A DNA stretch of 64,000 nt, from assembly GCA_963693095.2 (NCBI GenBank), contig OY843768.1, positions 544,001-608,000 of the forward strand, given 5' to 3'. This DNA is from Cenarchaeum sp. Lineage in GTDB: Archaea > Thermoproteota > Nitrososphaeria > Nitrososphaerales > Nitrosopumilaceae. Of the stretch, positions 41,401-64,000 are shown piece after piece. Position numbers and translations under genes: made by a program. The notes under the pieces are model-generated. The model searched no databases and was not told the DNA's origin. It saw only the letters and a list, made by a program, of their open reading frames with translations. Numbering within the stretch: the stretch's first letter is position 1; every line of letters begins with the position of its first letter.

Positions 41401-44400
41401 CGTGACGCTAAGGCTCAACGCAGACGCCGCTGACGGCGAGTACACCGTCGCGATCGCCGGCGCCAGGCAGGCAGCAGACGCGACTGCCACGCCACCGCGC
41501 CTCGAGCGCGCGTACGCCGCCGGCGACGTCGCCGTGACGCTCGGGCCACTAGAGCCCAGGGCAGTGGAGCTGGACATTGTGGTTGCTGACACCAATGATG
41601 TGGAGCGGACCGGCGAGGCGACCTCGCTTGCGCGCGCCGGCGACAAGATAGTAATCACCGCAACGCTTGCGGACATGACGGCTAGCGCGCCTGTCATTCG
41701 CGCGTTTGGCGCCACTGTGTCAGAAGGCGAAGAGGAGACGACGACCTTTGGCGGCAGCGCCGTGGCCATGACTGCCGGCGCGACTGCGCGCGAGTGGACA
41801 TCAACGTTCACGGTGAGCGCCGCAGACGCAGACACGCCGGTGCCGGCAGCCGACGGCCCGTTCACGTTCCGCATGTCAGCGGACTGCACTGACGCGACTG
41901 ACACGGCCGCAGACCGCGACGGCTGCGTGGACACCGACCACGATGACGCCGCGCTCCTCGGCGCGATGCTGCCGACCATAGACCGGACACCGCCTGTGAT
42001 CGAGGACGTCACCATCGCGACAGTCAACGCCGCGAGCGCAAACGCGCTAGTCGTCGAGTTCAGCGAGCCCATAGCGGCCGGCACGCTCTCGCGCGACAGC
42101 CTCGTGGTGTCCACGGGAACCGGCGCGTCTGCGACGCGCGCGGCACTTGTGGCCGATGACGCCGACGAGGCAGGCGACTCGGCGCTCCTCCACAACGGAG
42201 CGACTGTCACGATCGTGCTCGCCGCCGCGCTGGCCGACGGCACGACGTACGTGATAACGCCGACGAATGCGCTCACCGACATCGCCGGCAACGCGTATGC
42301 GGCCTCGTCATACAGCGCGGCATACGGCTCGCTCGGCTATGCGGCTAGCCTGGAGTCGAGGACGACGACTGTGCTCACGTTCGGCGCCGCGCTACAGTCC
42401 TCACTCGGGGTCGGCTCCACGCTTGACGCCTCGCACTGGCGAGTCGAGGATATTGCCGGCTCGACCCCGCTGGCACTGCGCATCGCCTCGGTGGTTCCCT
42501 CGACTGTGGGTGCGACGACTGTCATGGAGGTGACGTTCAGCGACGCGCTGCGCTCCTCGACGGTGACTGCCTCGTCGATCACCGTCGCGGACTCTGATAA
42601 CAACGCGCTCACGCCGACAGTGTCGCACACGTCGGCCTCGCAAGTCGTGAGGCTCACCTTTGATCCCGCGCTGGCAGCCGGCACGTACACGCTCGGCGCG
42701 ACCACGGCCGTCACGACCACGTCCGGAGAGGCGCTGGGCGCCGCCGTGAGCAGAGCCGTCGCCTGGGACCCAGCCTCGTCGCCGACGGTCCAGTTTGACG
42801 ACGAGGGCCGCCCCACGCCGCACCCCTCGCGCGCCGCCGAGAGGAGCGTGATCTCGGCCACGCTGACGAGAGCCGGCACCTCGCCGCAGGTGACGATCGT
42901 CCACTCGCCGCTGCTCAACACGGACACGCCGGTCATCTCGTACTCGCAGTGCGACGCGGCCTGCCTGGCAGGCGCATCTGGCGCGCCGGTGACGACAGGG
43001 CGCATGGTCGCCGCCGACGGCGCGCCGCCGGAGGTCGTCTACGCCATGCGCACCTCAGACGGCAGGATTGCGATACCCTTCCACGAGGCCGTCGCCGGCA
43101 CGTCCACGGCGACGTTTACGGTGAACGGCCCGAGGGCGAGTGCAAGCGACGCCGGCCCGGCAGTGCCGCTCCACGGCACTCGCGCGACTGCCGTCTCGTA
43201 CAGCGACGCGTCACGGACGATCACGCTAACGCTGGTGGATCCGCTGCCGGAGACCGGCGAGTACACGGTGAGGATGATCGGCCTGACTGACACGGCGAGC
43301 CCCGTCAACCTGTACGACGCGGCTGACACGGTGAGCATATCACCGATCGACATGAGGCCGCCAGTCGAGTCCGTGGCGTTCACGACACCCTCGAGCCTCC
43401 TCGTCACCTTTGGCCTCGGGGTGGCCGGCGTGGGCGACATGGTGGGCGCCGAGGTGTGCGGCACTGCCGTGGAGGAGGGAGTCTCCGTCTTCCGCTGCGT
43501 CCTCGTCCCGTCTGATGAGACAGAGGGCACGGGCCTGACTGGCATCTCGGTCAGCTATCGGCGCGTCACCTCGTCAGTTGTCAACGGCGAGACAGTGCTG
43601 GCGCCACACTCCTCCTCCACGCTCGCCGGCGCGACCTTTGAGCTGCGCGGCCCGCGCGTTGACGACTCTGATCCCGGCCCGGTCATTGGCATATCGCAGG
43701 CGGCGTACTCTGGCGTCCCGCCGCCCACCGTCGGCATCGCGCTGGGCTCGCCGGTCTCGCCCGGCGCGTACTCGCTGAGCATCGCCGGCGTGACCGGCAT
43801 CACGCAACTGCGCCACGAGCTGGTCACTAGCATCGGCGTCGTCCTCGAGGCGCCAAGGCGCGCGGCGACTGCAATAGAGTACGATGTCCTAAAGGGCGCA
43901 GAGGGCAGCAAGACCATCGTGACTCCGGGCGACGGCAGGCTCTCACAGTTTGTGGGGGCTGGCGATGACATTAGGCTGACAGTCACGCTCAACGAGGCAG
44001 TCACGATGGCGCCGCAGGTCCGCTTTGTCGGCAAGGTCACAGCCGACGACGCCGACACGGCCGTTGACGAGTCCCTCGGCGTGCCGATGAGCGCAGTCTC
44101 GGGCAGGACCAACACGTGGACCACGACGTACACGGTAGAGACTGCCGAGCAGAACGCGGGACTGCGCGACGGGCCGTTCACGTTTGAGATACCGCACCCC
44201 GACGGCGTGTCTGTCGGCCCGACGATCACCGGCGCCTCTGGCCACGCCGCGCCGCTCATCGCGGCAAACAATGGCGTGCCGATAGGCCCTGTGGTGGACA
44301 CTGACCCGAGCAGCCCAACGTTCGAGCAGGTCCTCGACAGGCTTCACTCGGCGCCGACACCGCCGACGATAGACCGCACGGCGCCGACGATAGCGACAGT

Positions 44401-47400
44401 GTCGTTTGTTAGCGCAGATGCGGCCGCATCCAACGCGATCAGGGTAATGTTTGACGAGCGGATCAACCCCGCCACGCTCACCAGGGCAAGCCTGCCGGTG
44501 ACTGCCACCGACTCGTCAGGCAGTCCGCTGACCATCACGCTGCACACCGACGACGCGACCGAGGATGGCGACTCGGCGATACTCGTCTCCGCGGTCAACT
44601 CTGGCGTCGGCTCGGGCGCCTCCCAGTACACCGCCGTCACGATCGTCCTGGCCTCGGCGCTGACTGACGGCGCGACGTACACGGTCACGCCTGCGCCCAC
44701 AGTCACCGACCTGGCAGGCAACGCGCTGGCGCTCACCGGCACGGAGCCTGACACGCGCGCCGTCTCGGCGACGTACAGCGCCCCGCCGGCGGCCCTCACG
44801 TACACGGTGATGACGGCCTCGCCGACGCAGACGACAGTCACGTTTGGCGCCGCGCTCCATGCGAGGATCACGACGTCGACTGATCTTGACGAGGCAAAGT
44901 GGATCGTCGAGGACATTGCCGGCGCGAGCCCCGCCACGACACCGTCGGCCGCCGATGACCGCGCCGTCACTGCCATCACCGTCACCACGGTGGGCGCATC
45001 ACCCGTACTGACGCTCACGCACGAGGCGCTCACCGAGACCTCGCGCGCCCTCGTCTCGTACCGGCCGTCCCTCGGCGACCCGCCGACGTTCGACGCGGCA
45101 GGCGCGCCGGTCACGAGCCAGCCCGGCGCCACCGCGGGCCATGACATCGTCGGCGCCACCGGCGCAGCCGTCTCGACTGACGCGGTCCACGCCACGGCAG
45201 GTGGCGCGCCGACTGTAAGGACGGTCTTTGAGTCATCTGCCACCACGCGCACGATCCTGCTCAGCGAGGAGGTGTCTGCCACGCCGACAGTCGAGATGCG
45301 CGCGACAGGCACGCCGACGTATGCGAGCGCCGCCGTGGAGGCCACCGCGGGCCGCGCGATACTCGTCGCCTCGACGCTCTCTGGCAGCGTCGACGTGAGG
45401 ATAGCGGGCATACACTCATCGACCGTGGAGGCCACCGGCGTGCCAGTCGCCACGGACCGCATAGACACCGACGTCTATATCGTGCCCGGCGACGCGACGG
45501 CTGCCACGGTGGTCGGCAGGGACGCCTCGCATGGCCTGCGCGACGCCTCGGGCCGCGCCATGGCGCCGCTCTCGGCCTCCTTTAACGTGCCGGCCGACGG
45601 CGAGCTCGTCCTGATCGCCGTGTCCCCGTCAGTCAGCGACAGGTCAGTGAGGCTCCTGTTCAGCGAGGCCATCGATCCGGCATCGGTCAGCGCCTCGGCC
45701 TTTGAGGTCACCGGCCCCTCGCCGTCCACAGCACCGCTGACGATAACGACTGCCACGCTCGATGCCGCGTTGTCAGTCGGCGCGCCTCGCAACGTGGTGA
45801 CGCTGGTCATAGCAGAGGACATATCCGCCGCGGGCCAGTACGTCGTGACGGCAAGGGCCGCCGGCGGAATCACGCAGCCTGACGCGGTGCCCGAAGGCGC
45901 ACTGGCAGCCGACTCGGTCTCCGTGTTCCGCGTGGCCGCCGCCGGCACCGCCACGCTCACGGCCGCCGCGCCGTCAGGCGCGCAGACAGTCGTCGCGACG
46001 CTCACGCCGGCGATCGACATGACCTCTGCAGGTCCGCAGGTCTTTAGGATAGTCGGGCCGTCAGGCGCGCAGCAGTTCCGCGCGATCGAGTCGACTACGG
46101 CGACGTCGGCCACTACGGTGAGCATATCGGTGCGGGCAGCACTGCCGGCAGGCACGTACACGCTGGAGACCATAGAGCCCCCGCGCGCGACTGGCCTGAC
46201 GCTCAACCTCGACAGGCTTGACGGCACGGCGGGAGCCGGCACGGCAGCAGACACAGTCGACGCGCCGATAACTGCGAGGATTGACGGCGCCGAGCTCGTC
46301 ATCCCGTCCGGAGCCACGTTCACGTTTGGCAGCGCCGCCGAGGCGGTCCTCCTGGAGCGCGCCGCACTCGACGCGGATGAGGCATACTCGGCGCCGGGCT
46401 CGTCGCCGACTGCAGCGGACACTGCGGCTGCTGCTGCAATCTCCGCGATCATCGAGTCTGACGCGGCAGCCAGGGCGCTTGGCGCACGCGGCGACGCGCT
46501 CTCCTCGGTACCGCTCATAGAGGCCGGCAGCGCGTCATCGGGCATATCGCTCTCGGCACCCGCATCGCTGCGCATAGACGGCGATGCGTCTGACACCGGC
46601 GCCATCCACGCGTTCTACCTCTCTGGCGCCGATAACGACGTCGTCAACGCCGTGCCCGAGTGCGCGGACAGCGTGACGCACACGACTGCGCCGACGCTTG
46701 GCGCCGGCGAGGACTGTTACGTCGAGGACGGCGCCGACGTCGTCATCTGGACGAGCCACATGACGCAGTTTGGCGTCGCGACTTCTGGCACGCCACTCAC
46801 GTTCGTTGCGTCAAGCACGTCGGCCACGCAGACCCTCGTCACGTTCAGCCTGCCGGTGTCCGGCACGACGGCGGCAGCCGAGTGGGCGGTAAACGGCGTG
46901 CAGGCCACGGGAGTCGCCTCTGCTGGCGCAAGCGCAGCAGCGCAGACGCTCGACGACGACTATACGCTCACGCTGACCCACGCAGACGCCGGCACGGCGG
47001 CAAGGGACTCGGTCACGTACACCAGGTCGGCCGGCCAGTCCTCACAGATCCTCTTATCGGGCACTGGAGACGACACGATGGAGCTCGCAGCGCCGGGAGA
47101 CACGGTTAGCGCAGATGCGCTTGGTGATGCGGCATCGCCGACGTTCACGGCAGAGTTCCTTGATGCCGACACGATCACGCTCTTGCCAAGCGAGGCTCTC
47201 GACGCTGACACCGTCACGGGAGCCAACTTTGGGCTCAGCGGCCCGGACGGCCCTGATGCGGGCAGCCTGCGCGACATTCTCGCACTCGACGCGACGACGC
47301 CTGTAGATTACACGGCCGGCACGACGACTATCGCGCTAAACCTCGACGAGTCGGCGATTGCAGACGGCCTCTATGTCATCAGGCCATCCACGTCAGTCAC

Positions 47401-50400
47401 CGACGTCAGGGGCAACGCGTACGTCAGCAGCGCCGGCTCGCTTGCCACAGGCCTCGTCTTTGCTGCCACTGACGCGACGGCGACATACGACCCAACGCTC
47501 GGCGACTTTGATGCGCGCGCGCAGAGCCTGGTGGTGACGCGCGTCACGTTTGGCGCGGCCCTGGCCGGCACGCTTGATGTCGGCAACTGGACCGTGACTG
47601 ATGATGACGCAGACGTGGCCATGATCACGCGCGTGGCACTGGGCTCGGCGGATGACGCGCGCGAGGCTACGCCTGACACGACGCACGCGATCGCGCAAGG
47701 CTCTGCGGCTCTCGCACTGTTCATCACGCACGAGGAGCTCGACTCGACAGCTGCCACGCCGAGAGTCGCCTACGCCGGAGGCGACCTGACTGCCGGCGGG
47801 CTCGACGTGGCCGACCGCGGAGTCGAGGCCGCCGACGGGATCGCCCCGTCCATCGAGTCGGCCATGTTCACCGATGCTGACATGCTCGACATCACGATCA
47901 GCGAGACGCTCCTCAACTCAAAGGCAGACGTGGACGGCTACACGTTTGGCGTGACGGTGCCAGACACCGACTCGGACGGCGTTCCTGAGGATGTCCAGCT
48001 GGACGGCACCAACCCCGTCGACTATGACGCGACGGCCAGCACGATCACGCTCACGCTCGCCGGTGATGCCACGTCGGCCATCGTGCACACCGTCACGCTG
48101 CCTGCCGCGCTAGTCGACAGGGCAGGCAACGCGTTTGCCTCGCCGGCCGAGGCGGACGCGACGTACACGCCGGATGTCGCGCCGGCGGCGACTGACGTGG
48201 AGTACACGGTTCTTGAGGGGACAACGTCCAACGCGAGGCCTGACCCGTACTCCTCGCACGCGCGCGCAGGCGACACGATCATGCTCTCGATCACGCTCGG
48301 CGGTGAGGCGAGCTCGGTTAGCGTGCTCTTTGTGGGCAAGACGGACGATCCGGACACGACGGCAGACGACGCCAACACGGTTGCCATGGCGCGCGTCGAG
48401 AGCACGAACGAGTGGCGCGCGATGTACGTCGTAGAGTCTACAGGCACCATCGACGGCGCGTTCACGTTTGACGCGACGGTGACGGCCGCCTCGGGCGCGA
48501 CGCGCCCTGTGGACGAGGCGACCCTGTCGGCGACGACGCCGCCGACGATCGACCGCGCCGCGCCGACGGCGACGGTGACTGCGACTGTGAGGCTCGCGGG
48601 CCAGGGCACTGATGCGGCATCGGGCACGATCGCCGGCATCGGCGACACTGTCCGCGTCAAAGTTGCGGCCAACGAGCCGCTCGTCACGGCACCCGGCGAC
48701 ATTGCGCTCTTTGGGACGTCGACTGCCGCCGACTCGGTGGACCCCGGCACGTCCAACGCGTACTCGTACGTGCGCACAATAGTCGCCTCGGAGGCCAACG
48801 GCCCACTCACGTTCAGCCTGACGATACGCGACAGGGCAGGCAACGAGGCAACGCTCACGCAGGCCGACGTGGAATCGAACGTGACAGTCGACTCTGACGC
48901 GCCGACGCTATCCTCGGCGGCCACGGCGACGACGGCCACGCTGACTGTCACGCTCTCAGAAGCCGTCACGGGAGCCGGCGTCACCACCGAGTGGTCTGCA
49001 GAGGACGGCGCGACGGAGGCTATGATCTCCGGCGTCGACGTCTCGGGCAGCACGGTGACACTCACTTACGCGACGATCGCCGACACGTCATTTGCGCCGA
49101 CAGTAGAGTACACGGGCACGGGCATAGTCGACGCTGCCCGCAACGCCATAACGCTTGACTCCGCGACGTCTGCGGCCACAGTGGCTGCGACTGACGCCCT
49201 AAGGCCGGAGATAGACACCTCCACGTTCACGGCGGCCGACAAGATATCGGTGACCTTTAGCGAGGCCGTGACGAGTGACCTGAGGACAGGGGCGGAGGGA
49301 TGGTCCGTGGTGGCCGGCTCCAGCCTCACGGTGAGCGACGTCATGTTTGCCTCCCCCACGTACACGCTCACGGTGTCCGACGTGGTGCCCGGCACAGAGT
49401 ACACGATCAACGCAGCAGACATGATCGACGACCTCGTCACGCCGACGGCAAACAGGGTTCTCTCCACCGAGTCTGACACTGCGACGTACACGGCGCCTGA
49501 CCCCTTCGCGGCCGCCACGAGAAGCCTCACGACGACGCTCGTCACGTTTGACGGCGGCGCGCTGGCCGGCACCCTCGACGTGGACGACTGGACGGTCACG
49601 GACAACGACACCGGCTCGGCTGACGCGGAGCTGGTCATATCGAGCGTGGCGACGGTGGCCGCCTCCGGCTCGGTGACGGCGACGCCCGAGACCTCGGCGG
49701 GGGCCGGTGATGCGGTAACACCGGCCATACCGTCGAGCCCTGCGGCCACGCAGCTCCTCATCACGCACGGGCCGCTCTCCTCGACGGCGGCCACGCCGCG
49801 CGTCGACTATGCCGGCGGCGACCTCAGGGAGGGCGGCGCCAGCGGCACCGGCGTCGCCGACGGCGGCGCCGACGCGGCCGACGGCGTGCCGCCGACGTTC
49901 ACGGTTCACGACGCGACAGAGGCCGAGGAGGGACTCGTCGGCGTCACGGACGAGGACGGCCGGGTGATGTACTCCGTCTACACGGCCCGCATGTCCGAGG
50001 CGATGGACGCGGCGGACTTTGCCTCCACGCCGACCGGCGCAGACGGGCAGTGGTCCGTGGCGCTTGGCACGGCCACGGCGGCAGCCGACATGGTCCACCG
50101 CGCCGCCGCGGCCGGCCCGCTGCCCGACAGGGTAGTCGTGCGGGTCCTGGCGTCTGGCCTGGTGGCGTTCCCGTTCCCGCAGGGGACCCCGACGCTGACG
50201 TACACGGCCTCCGGCGACCTCGCGCTGGCCGACGCGGCCGCCGTGGCGATGGCCTCGCCGACGTCCGCTGCGGTGACCCCGGAGCCCCCGGCCGGGCCGC
50301 CGTTTGCCGCCGAGACGCGCAGCGCGACTACTACGATCGTGACCTTTGACGGCGGCGACCTGGGCGGCGCGCTCGCAGTCGCCGACTGGTCCGTCATGGA

Positions 50401-53400
50401 GAGCGGTGGCGTGGGGCAGCGCCTGGTCGCGCTGGTCGTGGAGACCGTCACGACCGACCCCACAGACTCTGTCAGGTCGAACACGGTCGGCACGCCCCAC
50501 GGCGCGCCTGTGGCCTCGGTGACGGTCGGGGCGTCGCCGGCAGTCACGCAGGTTCTCATCACGCACCCGCAGATCTCGACGGCGGCGACGCCGACGGTCT
50601 CGTACAGGGGGACTGGCCTGACCGAGGGCGGGATCGCCGTGGAGCTCGGCGACGCGGTGGCCGCCGACGGCGCGCCTCCGACGTTCGAGGCCGAGCTCAC
50701 GTCTGCGAGCTCCGTGAGGGTCATCTTTAGCGAGCCCGTCGACGGCGCGACGGCGGTTGGCGAGTGGGCAGTGGACGGCTCGGCTCCCGAGTCGCTCTCG
50801 CTGACAGAAGACGGGGCGGCCGAGGCGGGCACCGCGTCGCTCGCCGGCACCGAGGAGCTCTTTATCGCGCTCGCCGCGCCACGCCCAGGCACCGACCTGG
50901 GCGGGCTGACCGCAGCGGGCGTCACGTACACGGCGCCGACCCAGGGCGCGATAGAGGACGACACGGACAACGACCTTGGCACGGCAAACACCGCCCTGCA
51001 GGCCACGGCAGTCACCGACAAGGCGCCGCCGATGATCGTCTCGGCCACGTTCACCGACGCCGACACGATATCCGTCACGTTCACCGAGGACGTGACCAAC
51101 GTGACTGACATTGTGGGAGGCGACGGCTGGTCGGTGGAGCTCGGCAGCACCCCCGTCGGCCTGAACTCGGCGGCGCGCACGGCCGACTCGACGTACACGC
51201 TAGAGCTCACCGCCGGCGTGGACACCGGCATGGCGCACACGATCCACGCGGCCGACGCGATAGCCGACGTCTCAGACGCGGCCAACCCGATAGACGCCGG
51301 CGCCATGACGACGGCGACGTACACGGCGCCGGCGCAGGCGCCGACGATAACGGGCGCGACGCTTGACACGCCGACGTCAATCACCGTCACGTTCTCAGAA
51401 ATGCTTGACGGCGAGACGGACGCCGACGAGTGGAGAGTCGACAACACGGCGCCGGCCTCGGTGACGGCAGGCGGCTCGACGGCCGCCGCCGGCACGGAGC
51501 TCACGATAACGGCGGCCACCATGACGCTCACGCTAACGCTGGCCAGCGCGCAGGACGCCGACGCGACGCCGATAGTGACGTACACGCGGCCGACAGGCAC
51601 CAGCGCCAACTCGCTGGACAACCCGGCCGACACCCCGCTCGACTCGACGCTCTCGCCCCACGTCACGGCCGCCGACATGATCGACCCGTCCATCGATTCG
51701 GCCAGGTTCACGGCGGCAAACATGATCGAAGTCACGTTCACCGAGCCGGTGACAGAGGACACGTCGACGTCGGCGGCGGGCGGAACCGGCTGGTCGCTGA
51801 CTGACACGGTGGGCAGCCTCGCCGTGCAGACAGTCGCGCACTCGGGCAGCACGTACACGCTCACGCTCGACGGCAACGCCGTGCTTGCCAGGGCGTACAC
51901 GATAGACGCCGCTGACGGGATAACCGACGAGTCTCCGGCGGACAACCCTGTAGACGACGGTGAGAGGGTCGGCGTGACGTACACGATACCGGACACGTCA
52001 GTTCCGACGTTCAGCGCAGAGCTCACCTCGGCGAGCACGGCAAGGATAGAGTTCAGCGAGGCCGTCAGCGGCATGACGGCGGCCTCCGAGTGGGCGTTTG
52101 CCGACTCGACTGTCGAGTCGCTCTCGCTGATGGCCGACGGGACGTTTACGATGGGCAACCTCGTGCTCTCCGGCACCGAGCTCTTTGCCACCTTTGACAG
52201 GGCCCGCACGCGGACTAGCCTGGACAACGGCGACGGCAACGACGACGGCACCGCCGTGGAGATCACGCCGGCAGTCGTGACATACACGCGCCCGTCGACT
52301 GGCGACAACACGATCCAGGACGGCACGAACCACCTCGCCGCCGCCGGCGACTCGACAGACGCCACGGCCGTCACCGACAAGGCCCCGCCGACGTTCACGG
52401 CGCGCACGGTGACGGTGACGACGATCGCCGTCACCTTTAGCGAGGCGATACACAACACGTCCGCTAGCGCCGACAATCCGCGCGCCGACGTGCTAAGCGT
52501 GACAAATTGGGACGTGGACGACGGCACGCCGAGCTCCCTGGTCGCGGCCAACTTTACGCAGGCCGGTGCCCCGACGGGTCCCGGTAACGCGGCATACACG
52601 GTCTTTACGCTCACATTCGCCAGTGCCTTTGGCGTGGACGCCACGCCCACAGTCACCTATGTCCGCTCCGGCCCAGGCTATCTGAGCGACGCGCTGACGA
52701 GCCACTTCAGAGACCATTCCGACAACAACGAGATTTCAGACGACGCGCTGGCAGCAGTGGCGACCGACGGCATCGGTCCGGCCATCGACACGACAGCGCC
52801 GACTGTCAGCACGGACGACGTGGAGTTCAGGCGCAGCGCCGACGGCATGACCTATAGCATAAGGATCCACTTCAGCGAGGCACTCGACAGGGACACAGTC
52901 ACGGCGGCAGGCAACTTTGCGCTCACGTCCAACAGCAACCCCGTGACGGTCACCCCATCCTATGTCGCGCCGGCCTCGGGGCAGACCACCTCGCACGTGG
53001 ATCTCGCCCTGACGACTGCGCCGACAATGTCTGCCAGATATTCGATCACCATCGCCCCCGCCGTCACTGACGTGGCGATGAACGCAGTCGCCTCCGCAAG
53101 CCGCTCCTTCACGGTGGATCTCGACATCACCCCGCCGACGGTCTCCTCGGCGGCGTTTAGCGGCCTCTCGACCATAGTCCTCTCGGTCAGCGAGCCCCTT
53201 GACACTGACACCGTGACCGGCCTGACCGTCATGGGCCTGGGCAGTGCCACGGACCTCACGGTCTCCACGGCGGCAAACATGGGAACCTCCGCGCCATACA
53301 CGGTCCACGCCACGACAACCGACGCGACGGCCAACGCGAGGTACACGCTGACGGTCCCGACAACGGTGACTGACGACTCTAGCACGCCAACTGCGCTGGC

Positions 53401-56400
53401 AGCGCCGGCGACGTTCACGGTCACTGCGCCGGCGACGGGCGGGACGATCGCCACGCCGACTGTGATGTCTGCGCAGACTACGAGCCGCGAGACGACAACA
53501 GTCACGTTCAGCGGCACGCTCGCCCTCGGCGAGACGAGCGCCTCGGACTGGGCGCTAACGCCTGGCTCAATCACCGTCACATCGTTGCGGGCCGGCATGC
53601 AGACCGAGGCCGCCTCGACGCCGTCGGCTACGCTGGACATGGGAGACGTGTCGATCACGCCGACCAACATGATAACGCTGGTCCACACCACCATAGGCAC
53701 AGGCGCCACGCCGACCGTGCAGTATGACGGGACGGGAACGATAACGGCCTCTGGCGCGCCGGGCGTCGTGCCGACCACGGCCTCCCCGCACACCACGGCG
53801 ACTGACGGGGTCGCGCCGCTCGTGATGACTGCGACATACGCTGAGACAAACCGCGAGATAACGCTCACGTTCAGCGAGGGCCTGGACTCCGACACGGTCA
53901 TCGCGGCCAACTTTGCGGTGCGCGGGTTCACCGAGCCCACGACGCGCTCGGACACGCTGGCGTTCAACACGGCGCACGGCACGGACGGAGTCCTCTACAC
54001 GGCTGGCTCCTCGGACTCTGAGACCTCGATGGTCTCGATCAGGCTCGCCACCTCTGACTCGTATGACGACTACAAGGTCGTCATAGCGGGCTCGGTTATG
54101 GACACAAACACCAACGCGTACGTGCCCATAGACAACCCTGACGGCAGCGACGCTACTGACGACAGCGACGTCGACGTCGAAAAGGTCGACGAGACTGCCC
54201 CGCGGGCCACGGAGATAACAGCCACAGTCCACGACGGCACGCCGGGCGCGAGCACGGCAAAGACCGGCGATCACAGGACCTTTGCCGGCATCGGCGACAC
54301 GGTTCGCCTGGACATCACGCTCGACGAGGACGCCTCTGGCACGCCGACCATAGACGTGGCCGGCGTGACTGGCGCCTCGATGGACGACATGGCAGACGGC
54401 GACGCGACGACGTGGCGCTATGACCTCGTCGTGTCGGCCACGACGGTCGAGACGTCATCGCTGACCTTTACGATAAACGTCACCGACGGCGATAACTCTG
54501 GCACGATAACGGAGACGACCGGACACGTGGGCACGCTGATGTTCAACCGGCCGACCATAGACGTGACGGTGCCGACGGCGACGGTGACGACTAGCGTGAG
54601 GCTCGAGGACGCCCCGTCAGACTCGTCGACAGTCACCACGGCCGGCATCGACGACGAGCTTCGCGTGACGCTCACGGCCAGCGAGGCGCTCGACGCACGG
54701 GTCACTGACATTGATCTCTTTGCGGCTGCAGTGGACGCCGACTCCGTCGAGGGCGCCGGCGCCAACGCGTACGCGTACGTGCGCACGATAGTGGCGGATG
54801 ACGCCAACGGCGATATCGAGTTCTCCGTCACGTTCCGCGACAGGGCCGGCAACGCGGCAGCGGCCGCATTGACGCACACCGACGCGACGCCGCGCGTGAC
54901 AGTCGACGCCACGCCGCCGACCATAACGTCTGCCGCGACTGCATCCACCACGACGCTCACAGTCACGCTATCCGAGGCAGTCACGGGCGCCGGCACGTGG
55001 TCTGCAGTGGATGGCTCGACGACTGCAATGATCTCCTCGGCGGGCGTCTCGGGCGACACGGTGACGCTCACGTACACGGCGATCGCAGACACGTCATTTG
55101 CGCCGAGAGTCACGTACTCGGGCACGGGCATAGTCGACGCCGGTCGCAACGCCCTGGTGTCCGGCAGCCAGCAAGGCGCCACTGACGGGGTCTCGCCGAC
55201 GGCTGAGGCGGCCTTCTCGGGCAACTCCATCGTCATAACGTTCAGCGAGCCTGTCACCGGCGTGACGTCCATGGACGTCACGGCGCCGATGGCGTCCACG
55301 TCCGTGTCCACGACCGCACACCACACCGCCGGCGAGGCGACTGTGAGGATAGACCCACCCACGCCGGTGGCAATCGGCACGTGGACAGTCGCCATACCGG
55401 CAACAGTCACCGACGTGGCGACCAACGCGCGCGCCACGACTAGCGTCACGGCCGAGCGCGCAGAAGCCCCCACGGCGACAGTCGCCTACGAGGTGCAGGA
55501 ACAGGCCACAATGACGGCAAAGGCCTCTCCGCACACAAACCACGCGCGCGCAGACGACACGATCGTCCTCTCGCTCACGCTATCCGAGTCCGTCGACACG
55601 GCGCCGACTGTCCTCTTTGTGGGCAAGACGACAAACCCGGTCACGATGACCAGGGCCGGCACGACGAACGTGTGGAGTGCGCCGTATGTCGTAGAGTCGA
55701 CCGGATCCATAGACGGCACGTTCACGTTTGCCGCGACGCTCACGGGCAACACGGGCTCGACGCGCCCCGTGAGCGCCGACCCGGCCACGGCACCGACAAT
55801 AGACCGCGTGGAGCCGACGGTCTCCACGACGGTGTTTATGGGCAACTCGATCGTCATAACGTTCAGCGAGCCTGTCTACAATGTGCCGATGACGCTTGAT
55901 GTCACGGCTCCGGGGGAGACCATGGACGAAGACACGACTGCACACCACACCGACGGCGAGGCGACTGTGAGGATAGACCTGACTGAGCCGGTAGATGTCG
56001 GCTCGTGGACAGTCGACATACCGGCAGCCGTCATCGATGTGGCAAACAATGCGCGCGCCGCAGCATCGGCGAGCGTAATGGCCATGCGCACCGACGCACC
56101 CACGGCGACGGTGGCCTATGCGGTCTTTGAGTCTGACGGCACGACGCACCGCACCGCACCGCACGCGGACCACGCGCGCGTCGGCGACAAGATCAGGCTC
56201 TCGCTCACGCTCTCTGAGGCCGTCACCACTGCGCCGACGGTCGTCTTTGTGGGCAAGGTCGACGATCCGTCCACGCCGCTAGTCGATGAGTCGGGCAGTG
56301 CCAACATGGTGAACGTGGCGGGAACGAACGAGTGGCGCGCGACGTACACCGTGGAGACAGACATGCAGGACACGGCAGAGCTCGGCAGCCCGTTCACGTT

Positions 56401-59400
56401 CATCGCGACGATCACGGGCAACACGGGCTCGACGGGCACGGCGACAGAGGCCCTGGCGACGCCGCCGACAATAGACCGCGTGGTGCCGAGGATAACCTCT
56501 GCAGAGTTCACCGAGGCTGACACGATTGTCATCACGCTCTCTGAGGCCCTCGCCGGTACGGCCTCGACCATAGAGAGCTACACGTACGGCCTGACTGCCC
56601 CTGATAACACGAACACGCCGGACGACTCGGACGCCAATCCGGACGTCATCGTGCTGGCCACGGCAGCCCCCTCGGCCACGCCGCCAGTAAAGCCAGTCAC
56701 GTACAACGCCGGCTCGCGCACGATCACCCTCACGCTGGCAGCCGACGCGACTGCCGATGTGGCCTACACAGTAGAGCTGCCGACGGAGCTGGTCGACGTG
56801 GCAGAAAACGCGTTCACCGATAGGACAGAGGACGCGACGTACGACCCGCCAGAGGCCTCATCGCTCACGTTCACCGTGATGACCGGCTCGCCGCTGACCG
56901 AAAAGACTGGCGCAAACGCCAACCTGGCCGGAATAGGCAACACGATACGCATAACCCTCGGCCTCGACGCTGCCGTGACTGCGGTGCCGCAGATAACGCT
57001 GGACGGCAGGGACACGGCGTCAGTGGCCATGACCGCAGGCGCTGCCATGACGTGGAGCCACGACTATGTCGTGGACGCAACGCATGACAGCGCCACGGCC
57101 TCAGACCCGCTGGACATCTCCATGCTCGTCACGGGCAACAACGGCAACGTCGTGAGGATAACGGCCACGGACGGCCTGGCCTCGGGCACGTCAGTCACGC
57201 TGCCCCTGATCGACGCGGAGAGGCCGACGGCCACGGCGCTCACCGCCGCCGTGGTGCTCGCAGGGCAGTCCGCCGACGCGGCAGCCGGCACGGTGGCGGC
57301 CATCGGCGACAATGTCCTCGTGCGCCTCACGGCCGACGAGGAGCTCACCACGGCCGCTACCGACATTGCCTTCTTTGGCCGCACCGGCGTGAACGCCAAC
57401 TCGGTCACGCCGGGTGCGTCCAACCTGTACACGTACGCGCGCACGATACTCGACACGGACGACAACGGCCCACTCGCGTTCAGCCTTACCATGAGCGACA
57501 TTGCGGGCAACACGGCGACGGCGGCGCTCACGCAGGGCGACCTGACGGGCACGAACGTGACAGTCGACTCTGACGCGCCAACAGTCACCGCCATGTCGCA
57601 CAGCGACACGGCGCGCACGATAACGCTCACGTTCAGCGAGGGCCTTCTCGCGACCACGGCAGTGGCGGCCAACTTTGAGGTGCGCGGGTTCACCGAGTCA
57701 ACCCAGGTGCGCTCCCCCTCCGCACTGGCGCTCAACGCGGCACACGGCACGGCCGGAGTCGACTACACGGCCGGCACCCTGGCCTCTGACGCCTCGACGG
57801 TCACGATCGGCCTGAACGCAGACGACTCGTACGACGCGTACAAGGTCATCATCGCGACAGCAGTCACGGACACGGCGACCAACGCGTACGTGCCCATATC
57901 CAACCCCGACGGAGACGCGGCGACTGACGACAGCGACATCACGGTGCAAAAGACCGACATGACTGCCCCGCGGGCCACGGAGATATCCGTCACAGTCCAC
58001 GACGGCGCCGCCACGGTTGCGGCAAAGACGGGTGACGCTGCAGGCTTTGCCGGCATCGGCGACACGGTTCGCCTGGACATCACGCTCAACGAGGACGCCT
58101 CTGGCACGCCGACCATAGACGTGGCCGGCGAGACTGGCGAGATGATGAACGACAGGGGAGACGTCGACGCAAAGACATGGCGCTATGACCTTACCGTGTC
58201 GGCCACGACAACTGAGACGTCATCGCTGGACTTTACGATAACGGTCACCGACGGCACAACACAGGGCATGATAACTGCCACGACCGGCCACGTGGGCACG
58301 CTGACATTCGACCGGCCGGCCATAGACAGGACGGCGCCGACGGCCTCGTCTCTCACCACGACGGTGAGGCTCGAGGGCGCGGCAGCAGACTCGTCCACTG
58401 TCACGCTGGCAGGCATCGATGACGACGTTCGCATCAACGTCACGGCCAGCGAGCCGCTAGTCACGGCCGTCGGCGACATTGCGCTCTTTGGGACGTTGAC
58501 TGCCGCTGACTCGGTGGATCCAGGCGCGTCCAACGCGTACTCGTACGTGCGCACGATAGTCGACTCGGACGCCAACGGCCCGCTCGCGTTCAGCCTGACG
58601 ATGCGCGACAGGGCCGGCAACACGGCGACGCTCACGCAGGCCGACGTGGACGGCACGAACGTCACCGTCGATGCCGACGCGCCGACCATCATGTCTGCGG
58701 TGACGGCATCGACTACGACGCTCACAGTCACGCTCTCTGAGGCAGTTACGGGGACGTCCATGGGCGGACACTGGTCGGCAATCGACACGGATCCCGCCGT
58801 GACGGCCGCAATCTCCGCGGCAGACGTCTCGGGCAGCACGGTGACGCTCACGTACACGGCGATCGAGGACACGTCATTCAGCCCAGAGGTCACGTACACG
58901 GCGCCGTCCTCTGGAGCGCCGGCTGACGCGGCGCGCAACGCGCTGGGCGGCAGCCCCGTCACCGCCGCTGACGGCCTGAGCCCAACGGCCACGGCGGCCT
59001 TCTCGGGCAACTCTATCGTCATAACGTTCAGCGAGCCTGTCACCGGCGTGACGTCAATGGGCGTCACGGCGCCAAGTGCGTCCACGCCAACATCCATGAC
59101 CGCAGACTATGACGACGGCACGAGGACCGCGACGATAGACCTCACCGCGCCGATAGCAACAGGCACGTGGACAGTCAACATACCGATGACAGTCATTGAC
59201 GCGTCCAACAATGTGCGCGCCACTGCCAGCGTCACTGCCGATCGCGCGGCGGCTCCCACGGCGACAGTCGCCTACGAGGTGCAGGACCAGAGCACGGGAA
59301 CGGCGCGCGCCGCGCCGTACACAAACCACGCGCGCGAAGGTGACGTGATCAGGCTCTCGCTCACGCTCAGCGAGGCAGTCGACATGGCACCGACTGTCCT

Positions 59401-62400
59401 CTTTGTTGGCAAGACTGACAGTCCGGACACGACAGCAGATGACGCCAACACGGTAACCATGATGCAGGTCGGCAGCACGATGGAGTGGTACGCAGACTAT
59501 ATGGTCGAGACGGTGGCTGCCGCACCGGCCATAGACGGCCAGTTCACGTTCATCGCGACGCTCACGGGCAACATGGGCGCTATGGGTCCTGTGACGCAGG
59601 CCTCGACGTCGCCGCCGACAATAGACCGCGTGGCGCCGACGCTCAGCGCGGCGCAGACTGACGGCCTGCGCGAGGTCTCTGTGACGTTTAGCGAGAGCGT
59701 GTGGGGAACCACAAGTGCCTCCGAGTGGACAGTCGGCGGCACTGCTGCGGAGAGCATCACCACTGACGGCTCGGCGCAGACCGGCGACCTGAACCTCGTG
59801 CGGAGGGCAACTCTGGCCATCGGCCTCTCGCAGGCCGGCGAGCTCGCCGGCGGCGAGGCGAGGCCGGCAGTAGCCCTCATGGCACGCGCGTCCGGTGGCC
59901 TCGTAGATATCGCCGGCAACCCCGTGGATGGCACACCGGTCACGGCCATAGACCGCATACGCCCGAGCCTCGTCTCCATGGAGTTCACGGCGCCCCGCAT
60001 GATCACAGTCACGCTGAGCGAGCCCATTGATGCTGACACGCTAGGCAGGAGCATCCCGCAGGGCAGCCTGAGCCCGCGCCTCGGGGCAATCACGGTCAAC
60101 TATGCGGCCGGCGCCGAGTCGCTCACGCTGATGACAGTCAATGGCGCAGTGGAGGGCACAAGCCACTCGCTCACGCTGCCCTCGCGCGTGACTGACGCGG
60201 CCAACCCTGCCGGCGTGGCGCGCAACAACATCCTGCCGACCTCCGTCTCAGACAGCCTGCCTAGCACGGTGGAGCCGACATACACGGCGCGCACGTACAA
60301 CGCCTCGCACGTCATCGTGACGTTCAGCGCGCCCGTTCAGGGCACGACGGCGGCGTCAGAGTGGACATTTGAAGTGCCGCCATCTGACCTGGTGACACCA
60401 GATGGCACAGGGCGGGCGGTAAACGCGGTGGCTGACAAGATTGATCCGGACATGACCGAGAGGCTTGATGACACGATACTGGCGTCATCTGCGTTCACCG
60501 GCCCATTCTATGTCGGCCACAAGGATCCAAGTGACGGCACATTCCCCGTCTGGGGACCGGGCGCCACGCCGGTCGTGAGGTTCACGATGCCGTCCAACGG
60601 CCTCGCCAGCGTTGTTCCGGAAGGTGACACGCCCATCACGCTAAAGACGGGTGCCGTGACTGCCGCTGACGCCATCGCGCCCACGGCAGCCTCGGCAGTC
60701 TTTGACACGCCGACTGAGGTCCACGTCACGTTCAGCGAGGACGTCCGCATCCAGAACCGCGACGGCCTGACAGTCTCCGGACTTGCCGTCACCGGCGCCA
60801 TGCTCGGCATGTCAGACAACATAGTGGTCCTCACCGTCAGTCCGCCGGCCGTCGAGGGCACGGCGCACACAGTCGGCATCGCGCGCGCAAGCGTGCAGGA
60901 TGGCGGCGGCAACACGCTTGCGGCAGACAGGACATTTAAGAACGTCATGTTCCAGGACGTTCTGGCGTTCACGGCATCCACGTTCAGGGCCGCCTCTGGC
61001 GAGCACGTCAGGGTCGTCCTCGATGACGACACGGTGGGAACGACGGTGGCCGGCGAGTGGTTCATCGGCGTTGCCGCCGACGGGACCGGCGGTGCGTCGG
61101 CGGCCTCGCTCTCGGCAGTCTGCACGGCCGGCGCAGGCCCCGCGGTCCAGGCGTCGATCAACATGGCCGACATTTGCCCCGGTGCTGCCGAGTTTGAGCC
61201 CAACACGATATACCTCGCATACGTCGCGCCGGACTCGGGCGCGACGCCCCGCGTGGCGTACAGGGCGCCGGCCGGAGACGGCGCGACGCCCATAGTCTCG
61301 ACGGTCAACATGCTCGGCATATCCGATCGCGCAGTGCTCGCCACAGACGGCCTGGCCCCGCTCTTTACGGCGGCGGCGACGACGAGCTCGAAAACCCTCA
61401 CGGTGACGTTTGACGAGGACGTCACGGCAGCGGCCGGAGGGCCTGACGCCTCGCGCTGGTACCACTATGACTCGGCCGTCGACCCGCCCACGCGCGCCGA
61501 GCTCAACATGGCAGTCTCGGCGATGACAATGTTCGACTCGGCAACGCTGGACGACCGCACGCTCACGCTCACGCTGCCAGAGGATTACGCGCCCTCAAGC
61601 GGCTGGGGACCCGGCGACACGGCCGCCGTCCCGCAGACGATAGGCTATGTCGTGCCGGCCGGGGAGACGGCGGACATACTCGATGCCTCACCGGCGGCCA
61701 ACGGCCTGGCAGACGGCACGGCGATCCGTGGCGTCACTGACGACGCGCCGCCAGAGATCGCCATGCTCACAGTCGTGGTCCTCGATGACAGCTCGCCAAG
61801 GGTGCCAAAGACCGACGGCTATGCGCACATCGCCGGCGCCGGTGATGCGATACGCGTCACGCTAGAGCTCTCCGAGCCGTCCTCGACCACCTCGCTGCCG
61901 AGAATCTCGGCGCTAAACGTGCAGGCCACGATGGCGCTGAGCAACGGCGACATGACGGCCACATCAGCAGACATCGCCGTGCCCGGCTCGTGGCCGAGCG
62001 ACGGGCCACTAGAGTTCACCATCACCGTCAATGACGCCGTGAACCCACCCAACGAGGCGTCGTTCACGCAGGAGGACCATGACAACCAGGAAGACGTTCA
62101 GCCGGTCCTCGTGGACGTCAACATGCCGAGCATCGAGGCCGTCCTGAGAACGTCGACTGACATGGTCCAGCTAGTCTTCTCCGAGGATGTCACCGGCACG
62201 GACAGCGTTTCGGTGAGCGCTGACGCAACGCCAGACGCGGCCACTGACCCGACAGCGCCCGTACTCATCAGGCCGTCGCCGGCGGGCAGCGACGCGACTG
62301 CGGCACTCGCACTCGTGCAGGGCACGTACATATTCACGATAGGGACCGGCGTCACCGACCTTGCCGGCAACGCGTTTGTGCCCCAAGAGGTCACGATCGG

Positions 62401-64000
62401 CGAGGGCGGGGAGATCGAGTCAGACACGCTCGTCGTGCCGGCCAGCGGCGCGCTGCCTGTCACGATCAGCGCGCCTGATGAGCGAGGACGGCCCATGGCG
62501 CCTGTCACGCTCCTCGTCGACGATCTCGTGGCAGACGACAGCACGTTTGATGGGGATATCACGATTCGCCTCGGGCGCTCCGAAGTCACTATATTCAGCG
62601 GGACCATGATCAACGACCTCGGCCCGACAGACGACGACGCGCCCACGCAGGGCACGCTCATCGCCGAGCTTGCGCGCCGCCTCGCCGACCTGACATACCA
62701 CGGCGCACTTGATGCTGACGACGAGGCCGCGCAGACGGCCAACGAGCGCGCCGCGCGGGCCATCACCTCCAGTGAGCCGGCAGTCCTCGTCACGCTAGGC
62801 AAGAGGTCTGATGCCGAGTCGGTCCTGTTCTCGAAACCAGTCCTGATCAGGCTTGATGGCGTCTCCGAGTCAGACCACATATTCTACATGGAGGCCGACC
62901 AGGATGTCGTGGACCGCATGCTCGTGACGGCGATACCGACGTGCCGTGATGCCGGATACGAGGACTTTGACCCCGAGACGGGACCGACACTGGGCAGCGC
63001 AATGACAGAGGATGATGCGCGCGAGTGCCACGTGCGCGACGGCGGGGACATTCTCATCTGGACGAACCACTTTACGCAGTTTGGCGGCAGCTTGCAGGGC
63101 ATACGCGTGGGCGGCGGCGGCGACGGGTGCGATGACTGCACGCCGCCAACGCTAGGAATAGACAGCACCGGAGTCCGCAGGGTCGCCGGCGGGTTCTCGT
63201 ACAATGCCGACACAATAGACGCCGAGTACTATTACACGCCGCTCCCGCTAATCACGGTAGAGACTGGCGAGGAGAACACGGCTGTCATCAAGGTCTTTGA
63301 GGACACCGGGCCGCAGAACGTGCGCCACGTCGGCCTGGGCTTTGGCCTCTCGCGCGGGCAGCACTTTGCCGAGTCGCAGGCCGAGATTAGGGTGCACCTG
63401 CCGTTTAGCGGCGCGCCGACCATCTCGCTTGACGATCCGGCCGGCGCCATCGACGTCGACTCGCTGCGTGCCATGACGGCAACGGGTGACTGCATGGCCG
63501 GATCGACTGCCGAGTGCCTCATCGTCACGATATACCACACGTTCCATGAGCCACTCGACTTTAACGTAGTCTCGACGATGGTCTGGGATGACAGGCGCAA
63601 CTCGTGGCAGAACTTTTTCAACCACGGCATCCACATCACCGGCGAGTCGCTAAACCCGCGCCACGGCATCGCAGTCAACGGCGGCGGGCTTGTCCTCTAC
63701 CCGCTCATCTCGGGCCACGTCGATGATGACGGTGACGGGATATACGATTATGACGCGCGCCACGTGACGTACATGCTAGACGAAGACCACCGCGTGTACC
63801 GCCTCACGCCTAACGGGACGTACCAGCTTGCGCGCAACCTCGCCTCGCTCCACCACGAGATTGACGACTCGATGTATGACGAGTCGCGCCTGACCTCGCA
63901 TGGGGCCGCGCGCGGAACGGTATTCTTTGATGAAATAATCGATAGGGAGCGCCGCATAGCCGCCGAGTACCTCAGGTCCATGGGAATGTCAATTGACATT
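20252..64000 (+). CDS. Giant repetitive surface protein, 3' part (about 14,580 aa, 3'-partial, absent from the ORF track)
   Basis: The frame with codon starts at position mod 3 = 2 opens after TGA 20207-20209. It reads the same module families wherever I translated it (e.g. 25322, 46202, 62402) and is still open at 63962-64000 (AEYLRSMGMSIDI). The track lists no + ORF in this frame after 19696, as expected if no stop occurs before the window end. The first ATG is at 20486, mid-module and without a signal peptide. Confidence 0.92.
22286..22950 (+). repeat. Block duplicated at ~37793-38460 (ASSIAFEVYDGTPDAGTLKTGDS.LLASDGDTIRLILTL…)
   Basis: The DNA is near-identical from gcaagctcgatagcctt onward. 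The offset is 15,507 nt, which keeps the frame. Confidence 0.9.
23005..24020 (+). repeat. ~1 kb three-module block duplicated at ~33655-34665 (…LADPDGDGPL.EITPASVVY.RP…)
   Basis: Shared tracts include acggcgccggccgagtggaccgtcgccggctcgacagtca and ccgacggccagggcggcctttttgggcagcgcgatcgtcatcctgttcag. Confidence 0.88.
30242..32640 (+). repeat. Local tandem duplication (period ~1.34 kb); further copies at ~13200-13910, ~33295-33655 and ~48190-48905
   Basis: 30707-31032 and 32042-32367 are 326 bp long with about 6 mismatches by eye, at an offset of 1335 nt. The PDPYASHAR.. module starts at ~30242 and ~31598. Confidence 0.9.
46202..46780 (+). other. Internal ZU5/GAIN-like putative autoproteolytic domain (…EC…EDCYVEDGADVVIWTSHMTQFG)
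   Basis: This is a non-repeat domain inside the 3' frame, with Cys codons at 46661 and 46715 and H-M-T at 46757-46765. It is clearly paralogous to the domain at 62400-63090. The fold assignment is inferred from the motif. Confidence 0.6.
53850..55625 (+). repeat. ~1.8 kb block duplicated at ~57612-59415; more diverged copy at ~20215-21600 spanning the frameshift
   Basis: Shared tracts include ctttgccggcatcggcgacacggttcgcctggacatcacgctc and cccacggcgacagtcgcctacgaggtgcagga, and the module order is collinear. Confidence 0.86.
62402..63085 (+). other. Distal ZU5/GAIN-like putative autoproteolytic domain (…LFSKPVLIRL…TC…RECHVRDGGDILIWTNHFTQFG)
   Basis: It has a ZU5-like F-x-K-P-V motif at 62828-62842, Cys codons at 62942 and 63026, and H-F-T at 63068-63076 followed by QFG. 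The fold assignment is inferred from the motifs. Confidence 0.65.
63110..64000 (+). other. C-terminal non-repeat domain (GGGG-DGCDDCTPPTLG…GGFSYN…YYTPLPLITVETG…VWDDRRNSWQNFFNHG…GESLNP), thaumarchaeal type
   Basis: Direct translation shows an aromatic-rich globular sequence with CxxC (63128/63137), a second Cys pair (63491/63515) and DDDGDGIYDY (63722-63751). The resemblance to C-termini of Nitrosopumilaceae secreted proteins is from memory and has not been searched. Confidence 0.6.

Follow-up and report, generated by a model that had tools for sequence, protein, structure and literature searches.

The DNA analysed here (the window) is a stretch of 64,000 nt from Cenarchaeum sp. (assembly GCA_963693095.2, contig OY843768.1, positions 544,001 to 608,000, forward strand), and coordinates are those of the window unless stated otherwise. 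The genome consists of two contigs (2.0 Mb, 60% G+C) and is 99.55% complete. An open reading frame (ORF) on the + strand runs from 20486 out of the window to a stop codon at window-equivalent position 64168; it encodes 14,560 aa counted from the ATG and is made of immunoglobulin (Ig)-like repeats (Pfam Big_5, E down to 3e-22). The element studied lies near the C-terminal end of this ORF: a predicted beta-sandwich domain with a His-Phe-Thr (H-F-T) motif, followed by a Gly-rich linker and a conserved C-terminal module. In a preliminary description, made from the sequence letters, a ZU5-like and possibly self-cleaving domain had been proposed at 62402-63110.

Profile A1 was built from the ten copies of the domain in the genome, and alignment A2 contains 64 sequences. 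Residue numbers such as H239 and T241 refer to a 249-aa segment that was modelled with AlphaFold2 (AF2), in which H239-F240-T241 correspond to His14195-Phe14196-Thr14197 of the protein. The features of the host ORF were as follows (basis in brackets):

20486..64000, continuing past the window, + strand: giant host ORF (ORF scan; Pfam Big_5).
46043..46789, + strand: internal copy of the domain in the same ORF, ending IWTSHMTQFG, with H-M-T at 46757-46765 (E 2.5e-70 to profile A1).
62543..63094, + strand: distal MAIN/GAIN-B/ZU5-like beta-sandwich, the core common to distant homologues (alignment A2; AF2 model; fold matches).
62942..63028, + strand: span between two invariant Cys codons, 62942-62944 and 63026-63028 (C197 and C225 in alignment A2).
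63068..63076, + strand: H-F-T motif, His14195 (63068-63070), Phe14196 (63071-63073) and Thr14197 (63074-63076) (translation; conservation; AF2).
63083..63127, + strand: Gly-rich linker GGSLQGIRVGGGGDG, from the last strand of the domain to the C-terminal module (translation).
63113..64000, continuing to window-equivalent 64165, + strand: conserved C-terminal module of 351 aa, starting GCDDCTPPTLG (tblastn; AF2; Foldseek).

The observations of the preliminary description were confirmed. Translation of 62402-63110 (+ strand), in the same frame as the host ORF, reproduced the strings that it had quoted (...EPAVLVTLGKRSDAESVLFSKPVLIRLDG... and ...ECHVRDGGDILIWTNHFTQFGGSLQGIRVGGGGDG), and the H-F-T-QFG domain end, the Gly-rich linker and the internal copy were all present. 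The first ~45 aa of this interval form a preceding extension outside the core domain, which is ~185 aa long and ends ...DILIWTNH-F-T-QFG. By analogy with MAIN and GAIN domains (see below), the scissile bond is predicted at Phe14196-Thr14197, spanned by the sequence ...IWTNHFTQFGGSLQGIR. A disulfide between C197 and C225 is likely because the domain is extracellular, and it would probably brace the hairpin.

Ten copies of the domain were found in the genome by tblastn of the region and by profile search. Eight large ORFs (1,061 to 16,125 aa from stop to stop) end with the ~250-aa domain followed by the ~350-aa C-terminal module (tblastn), and the domain stands alone at two internal sites, 46043-46789 of the window and within a 24,633-aa ORF. 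The internal copy of the window is followed directly by Ig-like repeats, without linker or anchor. Mean column identity among the ten copies was 41%, with I235, W236, T237, H239, T241, G244, C197 and C225 invariant. The whole adhesin family comprises 11 stop-to-stop ORFs, with ~104,000 codons summed, or roughly 15% of the 2.0-Mb genome.

When profile A1 was searched against 1.84 billion representative proteins, 98 matches were obtained at E<=0.001. Distant matches are confined to the final ~105 profile positions; two parts of the modelled segment, the ~60 residues at its start and a helix inserted at 124-139, are found in the thaumarchaeal clade alone. The pattern [WYHF]-T-x-H-[FLMA]-[TS]-x-F was present in 92 of the 98 matches. 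The six exceptions comprise a sequence with HFTSYG, another that breaks off ahead of the site, a likely false Ig-like match, and three (P0054, P0055 and P0088) in which H and/or T are lost. In alignment A2, C197, C225, T237 and H239 were each found in 64/64 sequences and F243 in 63/64; the nucleophile position 241 is Thr in 61, Ser in two and Ala in one, and the residue between His and Thr varies (F46/L12/M5/A1). The preliminary description had named loss of the His and Thr among homologues as one observation that would speak against its proposal; because both residues are conserved, the proposal stands on this point.

A degenerate DNA pattern encoding D-x-x-[IV]-W-T-x-H-[FL]-[TS]-x-F-[GA] was scanned in a species-genome collection and found at no fewer than 117 loci (that is, at least 117). 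All 117 motif-bearing ORFs were also recovered by a hidden Markov model (HMM) built on the entire core domain, with full-sequence E-values from 4e-8 to 6e-48 and mostly over HMM positions ~7-144 of 145; the test is partly circular because the motif is inside the HMM. Recurrence of the domain and conservation of its motif are far beyond chance.

Homologues occur in Thaumarchaeota, DPANN, the candidate phyla radiation (CPR), Bacillota and Actinobacteria, so that the survey of archaeal and CPR proteomes suggested earlier finds the family in both. Named members come from Nitrosarchaeum, 'Thaumarchaeota archaeon S13-S15', Peregrinibacteria and Nomurabacteria. Among the 80 pattern matches listed, the archaea are Nitrosopumilus, Cenarchaeum, Nitrosotalea, Nitrosarchaeum and Nitrosotenuis, with Woese-, Pace-, Nano- and Micrarchaeia and Methanosarcinales, and the bacteria are many Patescibacteria, Paenibacillus, Cohnella, Syntrophomonas, Desulfotomaculaceae, Gracilibacteraceae, Microbacteriaceae, Solirubrobacterales and two Gammaproteobacteria. 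When 40 relatives were searched with the profile, the domain was found in 4/4 genomes of the same genus, 8/20 of other genera of the family (12 of the 24 other genomes of the same family) and 0/16 of other families of the order.

In the homologues the domain is located between adhesion or enzyme domains and a surface anchor. Short homologues consist of an N-terminal part, the domain, an S/T/G-rich stalk and a C-terminal hydrophobic transmembrane (TM) helix with a Lys/Arg tail, which is replaced in one of them by an LPXTG-type signal. Bacillota proteins carry Cadherin-like, LRR or Flg_new domains in front of it and 3x SLH, 3x CWB2 or LPXTG behind it; a Microbacteriaceae protein has LPXTG at its C-terminal end. 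NHL, subtilase or beta-helix parts were also found in front of the domain.

Several Bacillota proteins carry a second, different domain of ~135 aa (type B) right after the family domain (type A) and a Gly/Ser linker. Its sequence closes with ...HFTKFAV and follows a ZU5-like pattern (GG.l...ga.i.iP.gAl ... F.k.v.ItlpfD ... W), so that two putative self-cleaving domains stand in tandem before SLH repeats. A type B profile gave chance-level matches against the PDB, with the ZO-1 ZU5 at E 1.3-1.6. The type B domains are located as follows:

L089:3612-4022, type B domain.
L038:2272-2682, type B domain.
L054:2354-2764, - strand, type B domain.
L021:4861-5271, - strand, type B domain.
L040:6151-6561, - strand, type B domain.

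The 249-aa segment was modelled by AF2 with the 64-row alignment as a mostly beta structure (pLDDT 90.4, pTM 0.88). The last strands are 224-229, 232-240 and 242-246, and Thr241 is the single turn residue after H239-F240, which places an H-x(hydrophobic)-S/T motif in a tight turn between the last two strands of the model. The cleavage sites of GAIN and MAIN domains are described with the same geometry (bioRxiv 10.64898/2026.05.12.724683). The model was compared with the PDB using Foldseek, where no match reached the threshold of E<=0.001; the matches of highest probability, all of them ankyrin ZU5 or CD97 GAIN domains, with both kinds among the top six, were the following:

6m3p_E, ankyrin-G ZU5-ZU5-UPA: probability 0.77, E 0.064.
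8ikj, CD97 GAIN: probability 0.69, E 0.045, TM-score (query) 0.35.
9mqr_A, CD97 GAIN: probability 0.63, E 0.13, TM-score (query) 0.33.
6m3p_C, ankyrin-G: probability 0.60, E 0.11.
6m3q_E, ankyrin-B: probability 0.54, E 0.14.

The GAIN domains of BAI3, CELSR1 and latrophilin ranked lower, and rank 1 by E-value was a phage baseplate entry with a probability of 0.06. In the ESM Atlas, one cnidarian ZU5 (PF00791) cluster was the nearest named cluster for the window domain (0.87) and the third for a distant member (0.86); these values are below the 0.9 level and serve as leads only. The fold assignment to GAIN/ZU5, based on a predicted model, is thus consistent and specific, and statistically weak. 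The ZU5-like domain of the preliminary description was supported by its local pattern, its predicted beta-sandwich and its terminal H-hydrophobic-T-x-F beta-turn, all as in the ZU5/GPS(GAIN)/Nup98 autoproteolytic superfamily, whereas the Pfam ZU5 family was unmatched and the fold matches were weak.

The C-terminal module is present in nine copies in the genome, all at C-termini and 49-77% identical. The ninth belongs to an 11,156-aa ORF, in which it follows a degenerate stretch (…RAVHMRQTSS…) without an H-x-T-x-F site. Thaumarchaeal homologues of the module (34-59% identity) lie at the C-termini of other proteins behind varied parts (TSP3, SWM repeat, fn3), often with Gly/Ser linkers, and the module is widespread at the C-terminal ends of thaumarchaeal proteins. 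In the module (63113-64000 of the window and L010:1826-2905), the Cys residues at module positions 6, 9, 127 and 135 are nearly invariant, and no Pfam or NCBIfam family matches it. The AF2 model (pLDDT 79.8) shows a well-predicted sandwich at ~10-180, then a poorly predicted stretch and two long helices; the sandwich resembles the Siglec-like domains of the streptococcal adhesins SrpA and Hsa and Ig V domains (Foldseek, E 7.7e-5 and weaker). The earlier label of a cell-proximal C-terminal part is plausible because the position of the module is constantly terminal, although an Ig-like sandwich and long helices are predicted in place of a TM segment. The module is a candidate anchor; no anchoring signal of such kind is known to have been described for Thaumarchaeota, although no search aimed at one was carried out.

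The closest known system is that of the MAIN (Microbial Autoproteolysis INducing) domains of bacteria and archaea (Brogan and Rudner, May 2026, bioRxiv 10.64898/2026.05.12.724683). As the preprint describes them, these are GAIN-B-like sandwiches with a conserved H-x-S/T, discovered by Foldseek from the latrophilin GAIN and defined operationally by PSI-BLAST retrieval from Bacillus subtilis YfkN (Brogan and Rudner, 2026). The YfkN MAIN cleaves between F and S of HFS; the substitution S1346A abolishes cleavage and Thr restores it, and the products co-purify until SDS or heat releases the ectodomain (Brogan and Rudner, 2026). Almost all MAIN proteins are reported to consist of a signal peptide, adhesion or enzyme domains, the MAIN domain and an anchor (sortase signal, wall-binding or SLH), and force-dependent release of the ectodomain is their proposed role (Brogan and Rudner, 2026).

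The motif and the turn of MAIN domains and, in the homologues, their placement and partner domains are shared by the family found here. As far as the preprint's account goes, both have an H-hydrophobic-S/T before the last strand, adhesion or enzyme domains in front and, in the homologues, an anchor behind; both occur in large secreted proteins of Bacillota and archaea, including the Paenibacillus/SLH context illustrated there. The layout proposed in the preliminary description, in which a giant adhesive part is followed by the domain and a conserved terminal part, matches that of the bacterial MAIN proteins. The window domain differs in its H-F-T site, where HFS dominates in Bacillota MAIN, and in its host of 14,560 aa (~30,700 aa if a frameshift considered below is not real), compared with a reported mean of 158 kDa. 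It also has a second copy in mid-protein, whereas virtually all MAIN proteins are described with the domain just before the anchor, and it is followed by an uncharacterised thaumarchaeal module and not by a sortase signal, SLH or wall-binding part.

A bridge to YfkN through the 5'-nucleotidase genes of three Bacillota genomes was tried and rejected: the sole YfkN-like protein there matches neither domain HMM. This Cohnella nucleotidase (L142:2666-7543, - strand, 1,626 aa, two 5_nucleotid_C) has an SLH-like C-terminus by eye and no H-x-S/T site; therefore, not all YfkN-like proteins carry a MAIN-type domain.

The GAIN/GPS domains of adhesion GPCRs and polycystin-1 (CD97 8ikj/9mqr, latrophilin 4dlq) resemble the family in having an H-x-T-x-F where the last strand follows the one before it and, upstream, a huge adhesive ectodomain, and GAIN domains were among the best fold matches. 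Unlike them, the family domain has neither a helical GAIN-A subdomain nor a 7TM or 11TM receptor behind it. The GPS pattern has four Cys, whereas two conserved Cys are found here. The ZU5 domains (ankyrin, UNC5, PIDD; PF00791) also end HF[ST]xF in a beta-sandwich, and ankyrin ZU5 was the fold match of top probability, although the family is unmatched by PF00791. ZU5, GPS and the Nup98 autoproteolytic domain were united as the ZU5 superfamily by Zhang et al. (2012; PMC3482391), whose paper predicts autopeptidases of this superfamily in polymorphic toxins and other large bacterial surface proteins, where they would release filamentous surface proteins and toxins. In the toxins as presented there, ZU5 is typically N-terminal in large RHS-repeat proteins, whereas the domain studied here occupies a C-terminal and an internal position. 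The analysis turned up no toxin domain, and a reading as a polymorphic toxin was rejected because the C-terminal module is conserved among paralogues, not variable, and is Ig-like in fold.

Taken together, the region is read, at a probability of roughly 0.68, as coding for an autoproteolytic beta-sandwich of the microbial GAIN-B-like kind ('MAIN'-type, ZU5 superfamily), with self-cleavage predicted, at the base of a giant secreted adhesin made of Ig repeats. The domain is best filed as a new thaumarchaeal member of the MAIN/GAIN-B/ZU5 superfamily, with an H-F-T site and a partly internal position, and not as Pfam ZU5. The interpretation given in the preliminary description was thus largely right in kind and is partly supported; no signalling role can be inferred for a tethered peptide, to which it had compared TQFG.

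The proposed mechanism, in which cleavage, non-covalent association and force-dependent release are all modelled on GAIN and MAIN, is as follows. After folding, the hydroxyl of Thr14197 would be activated by His14195 and would attack the Phe14196-Thr14197 bond, in an N-to-O acyl shift followed by ester hydrolysis. The new C-terminal fragment of 364 aa would begin with the strand TQFGGS and continue through the Gly linker into the conserved C-terminal module. With that first strand still built into the sandwich, this fragment would remain associated with the giant N-terminal one until load on the filament extracts the strand and frees the filament from the part held by the cell. The internal copy could act as a second break point or non-covalent joint, ~5,800 aa from the C-terminus. 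The earlier idea that the whole filament may be shed agrees with the ectodomain release shown for bacterial MAIN (Brogan and Rudner, 2026), from which it is carried over to this protein by analogy.

Several results weigh against a self-cleaving GAIN-type domain. Cleavage of HFT-type archaeal members is predicted from the behaviour of MAIN and GAIN, and the family was compared with the YfkN MAIN by its published description. No PDB entry passed the Foldseek threshold, the GAIN/ZU5 matches having E 0.045-0.57 and TM-scores (query) of 0.15-0.37, and a sequence search of the PDB with profile A1 gave just a chance-level endoglucanase match (E 0.88). Pfam (E<=1) and NCBIfam scans of the domain found no family, and neither did single scans of 20 distant members. 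PF00791 was absent from the six-frame translated genome at E<=10 and, against a curated cut-off of 21 bits, was unmatched at E<=10 in any of the 64 family members. With all of Pfam-A at E<=10, the window domain matched 0 families, and no ZU5, GPS or GAIN was seen among 25 of the 98 families matched by the 64 members. An hhalign comparison of type A with type B was not significant (probability 3% and 8.5%), the aligned pieces being co-linear. Pfam and NCBIfam scans, the AF2 model and the fold search revealed no TM segment, lipobox, sortase signal or SLH in the C-terminal module. Finally, the signal peptide sits on the upstream ORF, across the frameshift, and the host ORF has none of its own.

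These points lend some weight to an unlikely alternative, in which the domain is a non-cleaving structural stalk that spaces the filament from the terminal module, and W-T-x-H-F-T-x-F-G would be conserved because the last hairpin needs it to fold or pack. It would suit the analogical basis of cleavage, the weak fold similarity and the lack of a matching family model. P0054, P0055 and P0088 must work without cleavage, because H and/or T are lost, and the 11,156-aa paralogue has its module behind a motif-less stretch. Self-cleavage is also missing from many animal ZU5 domains and from some of the GAIN class. However, an invariant His with Thr/Ser two residues later in 63/64 sequences, set at a turn of a single residue and maintained in archaea, CPR, Bacillota and Actinobacteria alike, marks a catalytic dyad and not a packing motif. 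The hydrophobic residue between H and T varies, as in H-x-S/T sites, and bacterial domains with such a signature and placement do cleave, according to the preprint (Brogan and Rudner, 2026). A narrow-sense ZU5 of the ankyrin/UNC5/PIDD kind, derived from or shared with animals such as a sponge host and outside the microbial MAIN group, is very improbable. The top Foldseek probability of ankyrin ZU5, the cnidarian cluster among the nearest named ones and the local pattern G..L.IP.G..., ...F.kPV.I.L... all point that way, but PF00791 is unmatched, and the spread of the family over free-living Thaumarchaeota, DPANN, CPR, Bacillota and Actinobacteria, together with its presence in half of the other genomes of the same family, points to an old prokaryotic family and away from a gene taken from the host.

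Hardly credible is the further alternative that the motif is recognised or processed by another enzyme, for instance a protease of the cell surface or a sorting transpeptidase, which cuts or transfers the protein there. The motif does lie just before linkers and anchor signals, where sorting signals lie, and the thaumarchaeal members share one C-terminal module that might be a sorting domain. It is, however, buried in a confidently predicted hairpin of a folded sandwich and not in an exposed tail, and it co-occurs with unrelated anchoring systems (TM, LPXTG, SLH, CWB2), so that no single partner enzyme could be conserved. The autoproteolytic MAIN-type domain is kept as the preferred reading.

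Upstream of the host ORF lies a second giant ORF (3..20453 within the window, + strand), which begins outside the window, is ~16,100 aa long, ends at 20453 and carries the signal peptide mentioned above. The junction is located as follows:

20210..20453, + strand: stretch in which the upstream giant ORF overlaps the open frame that contains the host ORF (frame translation).

Protein-like sequence switches at ~20255 from the frame of the upstream ORF to the downstream frame, after which the old frame reads as Arg/Pro-rich nonsense. Because protein-like sequence crosses between the frames at this point, ORFs 3..20453 and 20486..64000 probably belong to a single gene, ~30,700 aa in length, that is split by a frameshift; faulty assembly, a genuine mutation or recoding could account for it. 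A second such junction was seen outside the window (genome C1:1250628-1250895), where the frame changes inside continuous repeat sequence and links the 24,633-aa ORF to a 1,061-aa ORF bearing the terminal domain and module. In the relative G004, the domain lies within one open frame of 25,697 aa. Long ORFs on the opposite strand of the window are the usual by-product of coding sequence at 65-70% G+C; this G+C content of the window compares with 60% genome-wide.

It is tentatively suggested that the giant filaments (up to ~30,700 aa) consist of pieces linked non-covalently into a chain, with two pre-set mechanical break points, one at the base and one in mid-filament. Equally tentative, as a part of that suggestion, is the view that the base domain precedes a previously undescribed thaumarchaeal anchoring module. 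If this were true, the cell would stick to host or particle surfaces and release at defined places under load, and the protein would be a multi-fuse adhesin beyond those of the MAIN preprint, linking such a device to an archaeal symbiont for the first time.

For a long time, GAIN-type domains that cleave themselves were regarded as a hallmark of animal adhesion receptors. Microbial counterparts have been reported in a 2026 preprint based on Bacillota proteins (bioRxiv 10.64898/2026.05.12.724683), so that the principle is already in print; the host proteins, the internal copy and the C-terminal module are new. Here the same predicted device is seen to extend to ammonia-oxidising archaea: a 2-Mb genome has 10 copies, and some of the largest prokaryotic proteins predicted so far carry it at their base. 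The internal copy raises the idea of several break points in one filament. If cleavage is true, it would explain the release of such filaments, would bring an H-F-T branch in archaea and CPR within the range of tested autoproteolysis, and would make the C-terminal module a candidate surface-anchoring domain of Thaumarchaeota.

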